Position numbers and translations under genes: made by a program
Notes under the pieces: generated by a model
Databases searched by the model: none
Told to the model about the DNA's origin: nothing
What the model saw: the letters and a program-made list of their open reading frames with translations, nothing else
In this document: in pieces, positions 5,510 to 12,919 of the stretch
How the letters are laid out: every line of letters begins with the position of its first letter
Position numbering within the stretch: position 1 is the first letter of the stretch
DNA from: Fistulifera solaris
Lineage: Eukaryota
Assembly (NCBI GenBank): GCA_030295235.1
Contig: AP026126.1
Location: 372,001 to 436,000 of the forward strand
DNA: 64,000 bases
Direction: 5' to 3'

Positions 5510-5587
5510 ATCTCAGGAACACAGTTCAAAATATTACAAATGAATAATATCAATGGTATATGTACTTAAAATGACAGGTTTCTCTTT

Positions 5588-8317
5588 TTAACCAAGACTG
5601 ATTTTTGATTGGAAGCGATGAAATGGCAATCGAAAACGCCTGGACAGCAGTAAGCGGGTGCTGAAAATCCATTGTGAAAGAGTGTCGTCCTTGAATTCGT
5701 CCAAACTGAAGCAAAATGTTGTCTTGATCGTGGCGCTCGCAAAGCTGAAAATTTTTTACACTAGCCACGCTCACCCTACCACCAAAATTCAAAACAAAAG
5801 AACCCAGTTCCATATTCCACCAAGGTGGACGATTCTGCAAAACCGTCAAACCCATAGTGTCGTTCGGATCGGAAGAGCCATCCAGTTCCTGACCGTCATC
5901 AGCAATTGGATTCCGCTCTTGCCCATCAATTCTTTGCAGAATTTTTCGCAAAGAAGAGAGCATGCTGGCATCATCACCCGCATCTGCTTCCTCTAAGTAA
6001 CTCTTCCAGTGGGGCGAGAACTCTTTAGTTACTTTTGGGATACACACATCCATTGTGCGAGGTCTACTCCCGAGGAGGTTCGCTGTGTAAGCTATAACTC
6101 CGATCTCTTCTTCTGACACACAAGCGCCGTTCCTTTCTTCTTTATCGTCTTGATGTTCCGGAGTGCTAGCTGCAATGGCACGACGTTTCGATCTTCGAGC
6201 TTGGCCAATAATGTCCTGACCAGGAGTCCCGAAGAAAAAATGGCGATTGTGGGGCTCGTCTGCGGCCATATCTGTGTCTCCATTAGCACGACGAAGGGGA
6301 AAGTGGAATAAATAGCGCCGTGATGGTACATGATCTGTATATGGACTTATATCCTCGCCAAGAGTGCCATCCGTTTTCCTTGCGTGCGGTTTGACACGGC
6401 ATGGTGAAAATACCTGAAACTCTGTCCCGATAAAATTGCTTTGCAATCGGCCCAAATATTGCACCCTTTTGTCATCTATAAAGGCTACAGATCGAGAACG
6501 ATCGCTGCTTAAACCATCATAAACTTCTTCTTGATTGTTGACGGTTGCAAAGTGCGCATCGAGGTCTGCTTGTTCCGGCATACAAATGAAATAGTTATTT
6601 GCTCCTTTCTTCGAAATAAGCGTCGGTACCATCCCTCTTGCGTCCATCTGCGCGCGACTTTTTGCAACCAATAAAACCGTATCTTTGCGAGTATAGTCGT
6701 CCTCGTCAATCAACGGGGCCAATGGAGCAAAGGGCCGATCTCGGATAAATAACCGATACTCGTACGCGGGAAAGAAGCGACCTTTAACGCTAACACCTTT
6801 GCCACGTGACGGAGATTTAATGCGTTGGATTTCACACTGGACAACTCCTATAGCTTTCGGACATGGTTTTGTTAGAAAGCCCTGCAACAAGGACAGTCTA
6901 GGGACTGCAGTGTGACCATCATGGTAGTGAATGCCGGCGGTAGAAGGAAAGATTTCGTCCCAGAAATCCAACATGTACTCGTCGAAAGCGGCATTATCAT
7001 TTTTAGCAAGAATCGCATCTAGTTCGCGTTGGTAGCTATCAAAACGAATCTGAAGATCATCCAACGACAAAGAAACTCCGCTAGTGAAATCAGGCCGTCC
7101 CCGGAGCACAGTCGCGGCAGAATAGACCCTTGTATCTACTAGATCAACAACTGGCTTTCCTTTAAATGGTGAGGGTTCAATCTGAGGCTCAAATAAGTCA
7201 GCATGCGGCTGATTTTGAGCACCCCTCGCCAGACCGATAGCATGAGCAAGCAAATTAGCATGGAGATCAGCACCTGGTATCCGCGGCTCAAACGGATTCT
7301 CATCTTCCTCTTCTCCTGCAAGAGCTGGAAGAAAACGAAACTCCAGACGTGGTAATCGCGGTTTAAATATGCCTCGTTGTGTGTTCTTTCGCAGTGTTTT
7401 GTTGGAATGAAAGAAATCTACCGAAAGACTGACTGGAGAGTAAATATATTCTTCTTCCTCGGCAGCGTACCGCCCTGCCAAATGATAATCATACAAGTGC
7501 TGATGAATGTTTAGTCTCAACTTTCTCTTGTGGGAAGGAATATCCTTTGGGGAATCAGCGTTCAAAGCCTTATACAAACTATCAACAACAGTCCGATGGG
7601 GTGAAACATCCCTTCTGCTTGATACGAGCCCTGGTTCAATTTTGCTTTCTTTGTGCATCAAAAATAAAGCTTTTATTTCAAGATATGTCATGTCTCGGGA
7701 TAGGCCTCCATTTTGTTCACGAAAACTTTCACGTTCCTCGTAAAAGGGTCGACTTGGAAAGACCTTTCATCCTTTTCTTCTTCTTGCTTCATACGAATTT
7801 CTGTCTGCATTCTCCATAACATTGTTTGATGCACATGACCGTACGAACGTGGATACACCGGTACACCTTCCGAAATGTACAACGATATCAGCTCCCTTGC
7901 ATCTTCCTGAAAGCCCAGCTTCCACGCCGTGGCGGCTTCTAATGCACATTTGAATGCATGCATCCGAACCCGTCGTATAATTTCTCGAGCTACACGACAA
8001 GCTGCTCTGTTGAGTATAGCAAATACACTCCACTCGGAAGGATCAAGAAATGAGGCCACCGCGTGGAGGGCGTCTATAGGTAAGCAGACGATTCCGCAAG
8101 GGGCAGTGCCCATCGCCGCTTCATCAGAACGTTCTGGAGTATTACAAATTTCCATGTCACTATCTCCAAGTTCTGGGGTAGAAAATGCGTCGTTTTCTAC
8201 TAGCGCAGTCAATTTCTCTGCAGCATCGTGAGCGCCCGGCGAAGACGATAATTCTCTATCCTCGCTTTCGGCAAGAAGGACCTCTTCATCCCCGTCACCT
8301 GCGTTTGTCGTCTTCAT
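5588..8317 (-). CDS. Tubby-domain protein with N-terminal F-box-like segment
   Basis: Tubby motifs YLGRLQSNFIGTEF, GSRPRTM, LQNRPPWWN..FVLNFGGRVSVASVKNFQL, LQFGR, FTMDFQHPLTAVQAFSIAISS. ORFs 7688-8317 and 5550-7691 joined by a frameshift near 7740; a further indel near 5612 (restored end SKISLG*). Confidence 0.85.
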
Positions 8318-8879
8318 TTCAAAGTATCCAAATTTCGACTATCGACGTTCCAGTAAAATAAAACGATTCGCTAGACTTGTCGCTTTTAGGATGGGATTGC
8401 CGCGCTACTTCTCAAGTTGTTGACAGTCCTTTTCGATTTTTCGATGCAAAAAGCGTTGCAAAGTGCGGACGAAAACAGCGCACGAAGCGGTACCGTACCG
8501 GTACCGGTACCGGGACCGCATTTTATTATACAGACTGTACAATGACACGACGTACCGGTAGTAAAAATGAATTCAAGTTAGAATAAGGTTGACAGGAAAC
8601 GGTACTGCACGCAAGTCTAAACTTTACAATGAATACTACGTACAAAGTACCAAATGCAAAGGTACCGGTACCTGGTAGTCACCTATGCAAGCAATCGCGA
8701 AAAACATCAACCTAGAAAAAAGTGTACTTATTGAGACCGCAGCGACATGATCGGCGAAACAAACTTCGCAAAAATCTGCGCCCTTTTTCTGTGGGCGGAA
8801 AATGGTGGCGATGAGGACCACATAGCCGAAAGATTCTTGATTTATCTTTGAATTACAAGAGCACAGGAACATCATCATC

Positions 8880-11211
8880 ATGTCTTCACCAGAATTTTTC
8901 GCGAGCAAAACATACTATCACGCCGTATCAGACTCCGAGGAAAGTGCGGAGAGTTACAGTGACGATAATGTATTCCGTCATGGCGATGCCATTCAAGTAA
9001 TTGCCGGGAAATAGGCTGGTCGAAGTGGAGTTGTTCGAAAGACCCCCATAAAGTGGATACCGCTACTCTTAGATCCCACATCCACAGAATCGAGCCAGGA
9101 AGTTTGCCTGCCGCCTACTTCGGTGAAAAAAGTAAGAAGGAACGCGGGGATGATTTATCAGGCGGACATCAACGAAAACATGTCGCCTCCAAATCAGCCG
9201 TCGTCAACAAGCTCAGCAGCGCCACCAGTACCACCAATGGCTTCAGCATGCCATAATTCTCATACAACATCACAGGAGCACAACGAACACGCAACAAAAT
9301 TTCAGGGTGAGATTTTCTACAATGCGGTATCAGACTCCGAGGGAAGTACGGTGTATGAAACTGACGATGACGACAACAACAATACTACTCTTCGCCAAGG
9401 GGATACAATCCAAGTGGTTGCTGGAAAATATATCGGGCGAACTGGAGTTGTTAGAAAATCCCCCGTAAAATGGATACCGGTGCTACTGCATTCCACATTC
9501 AAAGAAAGCAGCAAAGAAGCCTGCCTCCCTCCAGCTTCGGTGAGAAAAGTAAGAAACGCCGCGCAAAGAAACTATTACGAAGATGAGGACGAAACCATGT
9601 CTTCTCCGTCCCCGTTTAGAAGGTCAACAGTTCCACCAGTGGCCACGGCAAGCCATAGAATTGAAAACTCCCTGTTGTCACTTCCTGGATATCAACATGA
9701 TCGATGCCTGATTATCCCAGACGGTAAAGAGACAACCTTCGGCCCAACATTGGCCTCTAAACTGTTTGACCTTGTGAATTATTCTTTTCCGATTAACAAA
9801 AATAGCCCGGTAATACCCACAGAATGGACTGAGTCGGGTCACACTCTACAATTAATCGCTACCAAAGTGCATGATCATAAGATGGGAAATCAGAAGGAGC
9901 GAAGGACTACCTATACATTAATGGCACACTACGGCATCGCCAAAGATGGGTTGCTCCAAACTTTGGAAGACTACGCAGCATTCGGTATGCTTCCTCCGCG
10001 AAAAGTGGCGTCGCGTTTGGAATTACTTTTTACGCCCGCCATAAAGAATCATCGCCAAATCCCCGCCATTTGCGACGATATTACAACTGATCACATCGAG
10101 ATGCTCGCTGATGATGATTCTATCTACAGCGATGGGTGCGGATTCGTGCCCCGATGGATCATTGAGAAATTATTTGGGCAGCTCACAGATGGCAAGCGGA
10201 CCTTCGCTTTCATGGTACGAATTCTGGCACCACAGATTGGTCTGGTCAAAGGAATTCTTATGGAGAAACCTGGCATCGACAAGATTCAACTACATCCGAC
10301 CATGATTAAGGTTCCACGCTCACAACGCAATCCCAATAGCAAGAAAGTGATTTTGCTAGCCAGTCGATCGTATCCCTCGAAAAATAATCTTCAAGAAGCG
10401 CGCCTCTTGAAGAGAGATAAAGAATTATGCAAATCGTTCCAGCCGAACAAACTCAAACACATGGCAACCAATGTTCTTGATGCAAGTCAGATACCCAAAT
10501 CTGTGATTGATACTTACGTCAAAAACGCCACTGTAACAAAGGGCTTGGAACATGCTTTTGTTTTGGGTGCCTCGGATCCAACCAACGCCATTCCCCCCGG
10601 GCCATGTCTTTCTTTCTGGTTTCACTCATGAACTCCCCGATCATATCTTGGTAACACGCTTCCCTTGTACGGAATCGTCAGATCTTCTCAAGTTACCGCT
10701 TGTCAAGACCAAACCTCATGAAATGTCAGAAGAGCAATGGCATTTTCTGACCAAGTTAGCCTTTGGTGCCATCCTCTTTGGAAATCCTGGAAATGGGCAT
10801 GGACCTTTGCCTCCGATGATTGCGAACGGAGATTTAGATGGTGACTTGTACATGGTGTTGTGGAATAAGGAGTTGGGATCATATGTGCCCGTAACAGACA
10901 CAAGGTTCTTTTGTCCCCCAGCGAAGAACGAAACCAAGTTGAATGACGAGTGGAACACCAACTGGTTAACCGACGCGTACGGTCTGATGGGCGACATCAA
11001 TGCCTTATATTTACGACAAACACTGATTGGTAAGCTGCATACTTTGTGGAAGAAAAGCGACGATTACGCCAAGTGTCATGCATTTGGGAGGGCTTACAAG
11101 GAAGCAATCGACATTGGCAAACATGGCGGGAAAGTGCCTTTGCCACGGGCATTTTGGTCGGATTTAAAAGTGGAGTATCATATTTTATTGGAGGATGTAA
11201 ATTACGTATAA
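8880..11211 (+). CDS. Cellular RNA-dependent RNA polymerase (RDR/QDE-1 family) with two N-terminal KOW modules
   Basis: RdRP motifs in order: KVASRLELLF, SDGCGF, VKGIL, LHPTMIK, GASDPT, VTRFPC, GDLDGDLYMVLWN, IGKLH, AIDIGKHG. ATG 8880 is in frame with ORF 9123; TAG at 9012-9014; +1 indel in the C/G run near 10595. Confidence 0.85.
8890..9563 (+). repeat. Diverged tandem duplication (about 260 nt unit; copies ~8890-9146 and ~9297-9563) encoding the KOW module
   Basis: Shared blocks gtatcagactccgagg, ggagttgtt.gaaa..cccc.taaa.tggataccg.t.ct, cttcggtga.aaaagtaagaa. Confidence 0.9.
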
Positions 11212-11366
11212 TCTGTAAATTCTATGTACACTTTTAAGACCTCCACTTCTGAATTTTCTTGGATAACAAACAAGCGATATTTTTGGAAGGGATCATGTGC
11301 TGAGGACTACGGTACCTAGTACCTACCTGGAATGAGGTTAGACCTTGGCTTCTGGTACCGGTACCG

Positions 11367-12919
11367 ATGGGACACGGCCTGCACGACAAATATTTTCCGG
11401 GACATTCACAGCCAATACCTCACATCATCACGCTTTTCTCTCGTTTCATGTGCGACTTTCAAGTGACGCAATACACATCAACATCATCATTATCGTCAAA
11501 AGACAACCTTGCCTTCGTGCGAGAAATCGAATCGATTGCGCAGATGTCGCTACGAGGACAGCCCCTGGTCGTCATTGAAGACATTCCCCTCGGTTTAGGT
11601 CCATCGTCTCGAGAACACAGCGTTTCATCGGGTAGTCGAACCACGGTTCTATCGGCGCGTTCCTACGACTTCAACAACTTGGGCAGCGATGAGATGGACG
11701 ATAATGAAGAAACGTTTCCTTATGTTGCGTTAGAAATGGAGTGGGAGGCGTTGCAGAAAAGATGCTCTCATCGAGATATGCTTTTACGTCGGATGGCCAA
11801 AACAAAAGTGCCGAATTCATGAAAATTCTCAGAAAGCGCGAGTTAAAAGTAAGAAGGCAAGAGTTTCGAAAGTTATTTTTACGGCATTTAAGAAATGAAT
11901 CTCTGTTAACCAAAGAGGACTTGAAGAACGATGACGAATCCGTTTCGAAGCATCAACGTCGAAAAGGTAAAATAGATCAGCCTGTTGCCGGCGACGACGA
12001 TACATCGTCCGAAATATGGTTCGATACTTCTTCCGAGTTGCTCCATAGATTTTCTGCAGACCCATCTGTGTGTTCTTGTGATACGAGCTATTCCAGGGGG
12101 CGAGACTGGAGTTCAAACGCGCGCGATCTGGCACTCTTCGAATGGCACACCACTGCTCCTGCTATTATGTCACTGGTTGTACACTGCTTTGGTCACGCCG
12201 CACTTTACGACGGCATTGAAATTCTATCGGAAGAATTCAAGAAGTACTGCGGATTTTATGGGTTGCATAGATGGCCAATTCGCCCTGAATCCATGGCTCT
12301 GTTCATCATGTTTATATTAGGGATGACATTGCTACGCATGTCAGGCTTCTTGTATTGGTGGCTCAACGAGAACGATTTCCTTTGCCTCAAATTCGACTAT
12401 CACAACCGTTCGAGGCTCGACTGGTGGGATGCCCGATTTTTATTGTGGATGAAGCGTCACCCGGTTTGTCAAGCTCTCTTGTATTTTGCTGGATATCAAC
12501 TCATTTTCATGGTCGTGAATGAGATTTTTTACTATTCCTTTTATCTGTTTGATCAAAGACAGACTATCCTCGAAGCCTTGCCCAGCGAACTGTTTTTTAA
12601 AAACACGGGCCGTTTTCCCGCCTCATCTACGGATACCTGCCAATCACCGGAGTCGAACACGTGCAACGAGGAGCTGGTGGTTCTCACCGATGAAACTACG
12701 GCGTTGCTGGGCCAGGATATTCGCTACTTGTGGAAAAATCTGATAGTCAGCTCGTTCGACGCATTTTGTTACGATTGGGTGACCGACCTGGCCGGCGAAG
12801 ATGAACACCCGCTTCCGCTTGTAACCCCCTTCCGAGCTGTCTCTATTTGCATTATTGCAATCGCCTTTTGCGTTGTAATTCTGAAGCACTATGGCTTTGG
12901 GGTTTTTGAAAAGTACTAA
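11367..12919 (+). CDS. Hypothetical multi-pass membrane protein
   Basis: ORFs 11367-11822 and 11741-12919 joined by a frameshift near 11800; about 4 hydrophobic segments; no family recognised. Confidence 0.6.

Follow-up and report, generated by a model that had tools for sequence, protein, structure and literature searches.

A compact RNA-dependent RNA polymerase gene with tandem KOW units, interrupted by a stop codon, in the diatom Fistulifera solaris

RNA silencing works in diatoms. The closest structural counterparts of the gene analysed here are two cellular RNA-dependent RNA polymerases (RdRPs), RDR2 of the plant Pol IV-RDR2 pathway (PDB 7w82, 7eu0 and 7roz) and QDE-1 of Neurospora (PDB 2j7n and 7y7p-t). 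KOW domains, by contrast, belong to NusG and to Spt5/DSIF, a separate elongation factor (PF00467; PDB 4ytl, 5ohq, 5oik chain Z, 1m1g and 2xhc). In the gene described here a KOW module is fused to the polymerase. It occupies positions 8880-11211 of a 64 kb stretch of Fistulifera solaris DNA (contig AP026126.1, positions 372,001 to 436,000; the whole stretch is called the window below). On balance we judge it probable that this locus is the low-GC-subgenome homoeolog, FisN_11Lh182, of an intronless nuclear gene for a compact KOW-RdRP, that it carries a recent TAG stop codon, and that the role of the encoded enzyme would be to make double-stranded RNA.

A protein search recovered seven relatives, the best of which (P0001) represents a cluster including two named F. 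solaris proteins, GAX14361.1 (FisN_11Hh182, 774 aa; P0009) and GAX09840.1 (FisN_11Lh182, 442 aa; P0008). P0008 matches window positions 9882-10598 and 10600-11208 letter for letter (239 + 203 residues), and the window is therefore the 'L' locus. Its 442-aa gene model is a truncation. P0009, the H homoeolog, is intact and colinear with the window gene, with 86% identity over a 486-aa query. It aligns to each of the two window pieces and has the same MSS start, which fits the 'intronless' gene of '~776 aa' proposed in an earlier reading of the sequence only. F. solaris is described as an allopolyploid with subgenomes Fso_h and Fso_l (PMC5935921, available part), and its first genome was obtained by pyrosequencing (bioRxiv 10.1101/2021.11.10.468027, available part). 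Neither of the locus tags FisN_11Lh182 and FisN_11Hh182 appears in the supplement of PMC5935921.

The hallmark RdRP motifs claimed by the sequence-only reading were found in the conceptual translation from ATG 8880 (SDGCGF, VKGILMEK, SDPTN, VTRFPCTE, NGDLDGDLYMVLW and AIDIGKHGG), together with two KOW-like units, FRHGDAIQVIAGK*AGRSGVV (KOW1, the asterisk marking a stop) and LRQGDTIQVVAGKYIGRTGVV (KOW2). Both units lie within a tandem duplication of ~400 nt (8898-9254 versus 9300-9656), whose copies are 52% identical over 124 aa (tblastn E 1.3e-28). That reading had flagged the stop with its asterisk but had passed in silence over a frameshift further on. In fact 8880-11211 is not one open reading frame (ORF). 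The frame starting at 8880 (frame A) reads MSSPEFFASKTYYHAVSDSEES...FRHGDAIQVIAGK and then meets the TAG at 9012-9014. Past the TAG it is open through KOW2 and the first half of the polymerase (SDGCGF, VKGILMEK and SDPTNAIPPG), up to a stop at 10629-10631. The second half (GHVFLSGF, VTRFPCTE, NGDLDGDLYMVLW and AIDIGKHGG) belongs to ORF 10552-11211, whose frame is offset by one base; this +1 change occurs within a run of six C. The window pieces on either side of this frameshift were analysed separately.

The RdRP family PF05183 was detected on the C-terminal window piece with 49.5 bits (gathering cut-off 23.8) and on P0009 with 90.6 bits (E 1.3e-25), while the N-terminal window piece (9150-10631) alone gave no PF05183 match at E ≤ 1. 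In alignments of 111 and 146 sequences, conservation of each of the catalytic aspartates D649, D651 and D653 is 90% or higher. An AlphaFold model was built from the 111-sequence alignment for P0009, so that it is a prediction for a homoeolog 86% identical to the window protein. It has a mean predicted local distance difference test (pLDDT) of 80.8 and a predicted template-modelling (TM) score of 0.72, with a confident core at residues ~290-774 and disordered linkers. Foldseek placed this core closest to QDE-1 (E 2.7e-17), followed by RDR2 (E 6e-14). With the structural aligner VIA, model residues 261-760 were superposed on residues 292-932 of maize RDR2 (Z 22.0 over 416 aa, root-mean-square deviation (rmsd) 3.6), and the core was superposed on QDE-1 residues 415-1137 with Z about 19 over ~425 residues. 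The model of P0006, from the centric-diatom clade, reached Z 23.2 against maize RDR2. These data support, for the gene family, a compact cellular-type RdRP with a PF05183 domain, a predicted double-psi-barrel core of ~500 aa and a putative metal-binding GDLDGD loop; RNA-templated synthesis is predicted. The cellular type and the compact catalytic core proposed earlier have thus held up in both profile search and structural comparison, with PF05183 above its cut-off on the C-terminal piece and on P0009 and with the RDR2 and QDE-1 folds both matched (Z 19-22).

The likeness to these enzymes has clear bounds. Whereas the core here has ~500 aa, it is matched to ~640 chain residues of RDR2, a protein of ~1100 aa, and in place of the other N-terminal modules of RDR2 there are KOW barrels on disordered linkers; a Pfam scan of P0009 (E ≤ 0.1) returned RdRP and KOW-type families only. 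QDE-1 is a far longer protein, lacks KOW modules and is approached by sequence profile at E ~1 only. In the ESM Atlas the cluster nearest to the core is a plant 'RDR4-like' one of ~730 aa (language-model features 0.96; TM 0.74 by query), with bacterial PF05183-like look-alike clusters close behind. Both are leads only, the former without alignment or tree, and the 'RDR4-like' cluster differs in coming from land plants and in having no KOW among its common families. RDR3, RDR4 and RDR5 form the gamma class of plant enzymes.

The two KOW-like units proposed ahead of the core proved to have a true KOW fold in the homoeolog model, and PF00467 scored above its cut-off on P0009 (30.5 versus 22.3 bits). 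The model contains two five-strand SH3-like barrels, at residues 30-88 and 170-226, with pLDDT >90. KOW2 (model residues 168-226) was matched by VIA to the KOW domain of NusG (Z 8.6, rmsd 1.5-2.0) and to KOW6-7 of DSIF (Z 8.2), and it superposes on SPT5 705-754 with an rmsd of 0.9. Together, the matches to Spt5/DSIF and NusG cover 50-56 residues at rmsd 0.9-2.0 and Z 8.0-8.6; values of Z near 8 are borderline by the tool's own note, and an rmsd that stays low across the entire domain strengthens them. The tandem was matched by Foldseek to Spt5 KOW2-3 (E 8e-6) and also to the KOW6-7 pair. Unlike Spt5 and NusG, P0009 lacks an NGN domain, none being found among the Pfam hits of P0009 and six relatives (E ≤ 0.1), and it is therefore not an orthologue of either. 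No KOW match was obtained in the Pfam scan for the window fragment upstream of the TAG.

The barrels are basic, with net charges of +9 and +5, and the linkers, at −6, −14 and −3, are acidic. Identity between P0009 and P0003 is 62-64% in the KOW units and 30-31% in the linkers, and among four pennate orthologues conservation of the units is roughly double that of the linkers. Modelling and conservation thus show, for the gene family, two predicted basic KOW barrels ahead of the core, tethered by acidic, Ser-rich linkers that appear disordered. Of the 'own Spt5-like RNA-binding module' put forward earlier, the KOW fold has stood, and RNA binding by it is conjecture. A short motif, [FY]Y[HN]A[VI]SDSE, recurs in the pennate clade within the acidic tract ahead of the KOW units or the core (window 8913-8950 and 9312-9350). 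Other relatives have an (E/D/T)FFDA counterpart, those listed being P0005, P0006, P0007, P0023, P0025, P0034, P0035 and P0100. FFDA is present in 9 of 162 proteins, a set that includes close relatives, against a mean of 0.57 and a maximum of 4 in 200 shuffles. This aromatic motif is reminiscent of the FFAT motif, which binds VAP on the endoplasmic reticulum.

To judge the two interruptions, contigs of four coded runs (X1-X4), and contigs only, were compared with window positions 8000-12000. X1, tentatively labelled as RNA, was taken as DNA, because its contigs reach 24 kb and are spread over all 30 bins, including those between genes; the contigs of X3 and X4 fall on neighbouring genes only (8044-8406 and 11696-11989). 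A 1741-nt X1 contig (8000-9652, depth 18.9) reproduces the window sequence exactly, so that the TAG is present in the reads; a substitution error at a depth of ~19 is unlikely, and the TAG looks real. At this site a Tyr (GKY) is found in three aligned relatives that keep the KOW motif and in the gene's own KOW2, and P0004 has GVY. The C run behaves otherwise. Two contigs of X1 (with depths of 13.5 and 25.1, the depth at 10596 being 38.6) and two of X2 (9.9 + 10.8 of 20.7) have one C fewer, and P0008 matches the window with exactly one base skipped; an assembly error is therefore the most likely source of the frameshift at 10593-10598. The features of the locus are collected in the table.

Table. 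Features of the KOW-RdRP locus, in window coordinates
Feature	Position	Strand	Basis or remark
Whole gene, conceptual coding sequence	8880..11211	+	776 codons + TAA; 774-aa homoeolog colinear; broken by one TAG and an apparent +1 frameshift
N-terminal tail, acidic, Ser-rich, YYHAVSDSEES	8880..8966	+	disordered in the homoeolog model (pLDDT <50, residues 1-26)
KOW unit 1 (residues 30-88)	8967..9143	+	basic five-strand barrel in the homoeolog model; interrupted by the TAG in the window copy
In-frame TAG, codon 45, in KOW1	9012..9014	+	translation; an identical X1 contig spans the site
Linker, acidic, Ser/Pro-rich, FYNAVSDSEGS	9144..9383	+	low confidence (disordered) in the model; weakly conserved among orthologues
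First in-frame ATG after the TAG	9150..9152	+	possible restart, which would give a one-KOW enzyme
KOW unit 2 (residues 169-228)	9384..9563	+	intact in the window; net charge +8
RdRP core, ~500 aa	9651..11208	+	homoeolog model aligned to RDR2 292-932 and QDE-1 415-1137
C6 run, frame shifts +1	10593..10598	+	one C fewer in four contigs of two runs; probably an assembly error
Catalytic loop GDLDGD	10828..10845	+	three Asp at least 90% conserved in the family
TAA stop	11209..11211	+	translation

A second homopolymer discrepancy lies downstream, at 11804-11807, where all four runs have five A and the window has four. The extra A would join ORFs 11367-11822 and 11741-12919 into one frame of ~517 aa, so that this is a probable second homopolymer error splitting a gene. 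Taken with the C run, it indicates that the window assembly contains homopolymer indels, most likely including the one in the polymerase gene. For annotation this means that genes in the window are split by such indels, in addition to the truncation of the L-copy model. In X2, a run labelled as a wetland metagenome, two contig variants ~88-92% identical to the polymerase gene were seen over window 9800-11112; they are probably from close relatives of this diatom. Contigs from the second homoeolog or from relatives show indels and skipped stretches in the flanks (8437, 11444-11452 and the intergenic parts 8761-8875 and 11197-11537), and mostly substitutions plus one 6-base deletion, at 9888, in the coding region. 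The gene model of a close relative is also split: P0011 (680 aa) stops at ETKLND, and its C-terminus is found on a separate 74-aa model, P0010.

As it stands, the window copy cannot make a two-KOW protein, since the TAG is codon 45. Apart from this, the copy looks sound. Of 56 positions that are invariant or nearly so in the family, 54 have the consensus residue in the window copy, and at the remaining two (M for Q443 and T for S472) the H copy, as read by eye, has the same residues as the window copy. In KOW1 the window copy shares 57/85 residues with outgroup P0003 (H copy, 55/86) and 56/83 with outgroup P0004 (H copy, 59/84), and in no region is it more diverged than the H copy from these two outgroups. 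Conserved positions and lack of excess divergence together argue that the nonsense change is recent. The window copy is either, at best, a one-KOW enzyme produced by a restart at ATG 9150 or a young pseudogene covered by the H copy. Further in-frame ATGs follow at 9180, 9237, 9597 and 9882.

The architecture is common in a large family and by no means confined to this gene. Searching 1.84 billion representatives of 50% identity clusters with a profile built from seven sequences gave 1098 family matches at E ≤ 1e-3; of these, 638 reach E ≤ 1e-10 and 360 reach E ≤ 1e-30. Module counts rest on the best 150 of the 1098 matches (267-1535 aa). The Pfam-scanned set comprised 149 sequences (147 representatives plus P0169 and P0170); the first scan used E ≤ 1e-3 and the other two E ≤ 1e-5, so that weak matches are undercounted in the latter. 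PF05183 was present in 149/149 scanned members and a KOW-type family, at or above its cut-off, in 17/149. Other members carry a PTM/DIR17 Tudor domain (five: P0088, P0105, P0108, P0123 and P0157), a chromo domain (three: P0060, P0098 and P0104, with Mtf2_C in addition in P0060), a PHD finger (one: P0124, from the green alga Cymbomonas), helicase-associated (HA) repeats (two: P0066 and P0070) or a C-terminal RNase H1-like module (one: P0051).

A hidden Markov model (HMM) of the KOW unit, seeded with eight pennate barrels only and iterated to convergence, detected KOW units in 65 of the 147 representatives. The number of units is one in 24 of these, two in 28, three in 11 and four in 2. With respect to the catalytic loop, 113 units are N-terminal and 4 C-terminal. 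This HMM gave 0 matches in reversed or shuffled sequences and matched none of the Tudor, chromo or PHD members. Without iteration the barrel-only HMM detected 19 of the 147 representatives and missed P0005-7. An earlier KOW-unit HMM (73/162) was dropped as partly circular, having been trained on the C-termini of P0005-7 and on acidic flanks. The model of P0006 (pLDDT 85.0) has a C-terminal KOW barrel at residues 654-707, which superposes on residues 703-754 (KOW5) of human SPT5 with Z 8.0-8.1 and an rmsd of 1.4 over 52-53 residues; in the centric-diatom clade the KOW unit is thus placed behind the core.

A descriptive, midpoint-rooted FastTree phylogeny of the core (477 columns, 145 of 146 sequences, P0160 being dropped) showed the KOW-bearing members filling two main groups and the Tudor members together elsewhere. 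The association of KOW units with the compact polymerase is old, widespread and position-tolerant, a pattern better explained by a functional link than by accidental fusion. Few names were found among the members, and two profile searches of a word index, with 11 and 8 matches, added almost none: Fistulifera, Stephanodiscus and Cymbomonas, plus one record labelled 'mmetsp' and one 'eukprot'. A low-sensitivity scan for prokaryotic relatives gave 82 pattern matches, none of them confirmed, and is no evidence of absence.

These results suggest how the enzyme may act. By analogy with RDR2 and QDE-1, the core would copy single-stranded RNA into double-stranded RNA. The KOW barrels would stand in for the N-terminal RNA-binding module of plant RDRs; they might hold the template or the nascent RNA, much as KOW4-5 of SPT5 clamp RNA on its exit, might attach the enzyme to a polymerase engaged in transcription or to some other partner, or might do both. 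The product would feed a Dicer/Argonaute pathway. That sister clades have Tudor, chromo or PHD in place of KOW suggests that the enzyme acts in the setting of transcription or chromatin. A bolder proposal, which we hold only as speculation and think rather unlikely to be right in full, is an algal form of transcription-coupled silencing. Here a self-sufficient RdRP with a KOW 'RNA clamp' (or, in sister clades, a Tudor, chromo or PHD module) would dock on an elongating polymerase or on marked chromatin and turn nascent transcripts directly into double-stranded RNA, the position of the KOW units (1-4 N-terminal or one C-terminal) tuning the geometry. If true, a single polypeptide would then correspond to the Pol IV-RDR2 channel of plants. 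The suggestion of an uncharacterised branch of small-RNA biology survives as far as a poorly described algal branch of polymerases is concerned; a role in small RNAs is presumptive.

Several observations weigh against the reading of the locus as a KOW-RdRP homoeolog with a recent stop and a role in double-stranded RNA synthesis. In the window itself KOW2 falls below threshold, with 15 bits for PF00467 (cut-off 22.3) and 17.1 for KOW4_SPT5 (cut-off 27). Among solved RdRPs, sequence likeness extends no further than the catalytic loop, where the profile aligns with the DLDGD loop of RDR2 (E 5e-4, against ~1 for QDE-1), and a single-sequence search of solved structures gave no RdRP match; that RDR2 is reached by sequence through this loop only marks the enzyme as very divergent. 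X1 is possibly the source data of the window assembly, in which case its support for the TAG is not independent, and the contig tables show differences only, so that not every contig at the C run is visible. The state of the window copy also admits a harsher verdict, namely that the L homoeolog became redundant after hybridisation and is being lost, the TAG ending translation after 44 residues and the gene being plainly dead. The TAG in a contig identical to the window, the intact H copy, the deposited L model truncated to 442 aa and the gene fractionation discussed for this genome (PMC5935921, available part) all agree with such a loss. Yet the TAG is the single lesion once the C-run error is discounted, the conserved positions and outgroup identities given above reveal no decay, KOW1 included, and the ATGs at 9150 and 9180 could restart translation ahead of KOW2. 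Outright death of the gene is accordingly a real possibility, though one that we hold to be somewhat short of an even chance.

The function of the barrels is open to a different view as well. KOW domains of NusG and Spt5 also bind proteins, and in paralogous clades the same N-terminal place is taken by Tudor (five members), chromo (three) or PHD (one), so that recognition of a partner or of chromatin fits at least as well as RNA binding. The KOW barrels might then be adaptors interchangeable with these readers, and not RNA binders. Their strongly basic character speaks against this, as do structural matches that include KOW5 of SPT5, which is an RNA-contacting KOW; the two roles are also compatible, and as an exclusive account we consider the adaptor view somewhat unlikely. 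Template preference is touched by the phage enzymes P32 gp64 and P74 gp62 (8f72 and 8f5m; ~590 aa), which, to judge by their entry titles, are DNA-templated single-subunit RNA polymerases. They match the core with Z 16.9 over ~340 residues, P23-45 gp96 reaches Z 12, and the top matches include structures of QDE-1 on DNA templates. The gene product could thus be a small, mainly DNA-templated RNA polymerase that makes aberrant RNA from single-stranded DNA or transcription bubbles, the KOW units acting as Spt5 does. RDR2 and QDE-1, however, score above the phage enzymes (Z 19-22), the Pfam family is PF05183, and P32 gp64 and P74 gp62 are of phage origin and have no KOW modules; we regard a DNA-templated enzyme as improbable. 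Least credible of all is a selfish, mobile or virus-derived polymerase, as the sequence-only reading had entertained. The family is large, with many metagenomic members, and P0051 is fused to an RNase H1-like C-terminus, both of which speak for such an origin. Against this, no second copy of the KOW-RdRP gene is present elsewhere in the window, and the neighbouring genes are ordinary, encoding Tub, CinA with a NUDIX zinc ribbon, an RsmE-type RNA methyltransferase and dUTPase. The homoeologs carry matching tags (11Lh182 and 11Hh182), and a scan of viral contigs gave 106 pattern matches but no confirmed relative. We set this origin aside as very improbable.

Putative RdRPs are listed for Phaeodactylum and Thalassiosira (PMC2724275), and diatom RNA interference papers, in the parts available to us, list RdRPs without this architecture (PMC2724275, PMC4247016 and PMC3145265); 'KOW' has 0 occurrences in the available part of PMC6396948. 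Literature searches, in which coverage of subscription papers was incomplete, returned no paper describing a KOW-RdRP fusion, and no account was found of how diatom RdRPs are built or recruited. The proteins themselves are already in public databases under automatic names. The present results define a large family of half-size RdRPs with KOW, Tudor, chromo or PHD accessory modules. All four modules come from the transcription or chromatin machinery, and the choice of template becomes experimentally testable; editing with CRISPR ribonucleoproteins has been reported for F. solaris (PMC13276009, available part).

One further observation concerns the neighbouring Tub gene. On the minus strand, the end of an ORF of 209 aa (7688-8317) shares the letters ATGA with the beginning of the Tub-domain ORF (713 aa, 5550-7691), which lies in another frame. 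The two may be one gene split by an intron or an indel.

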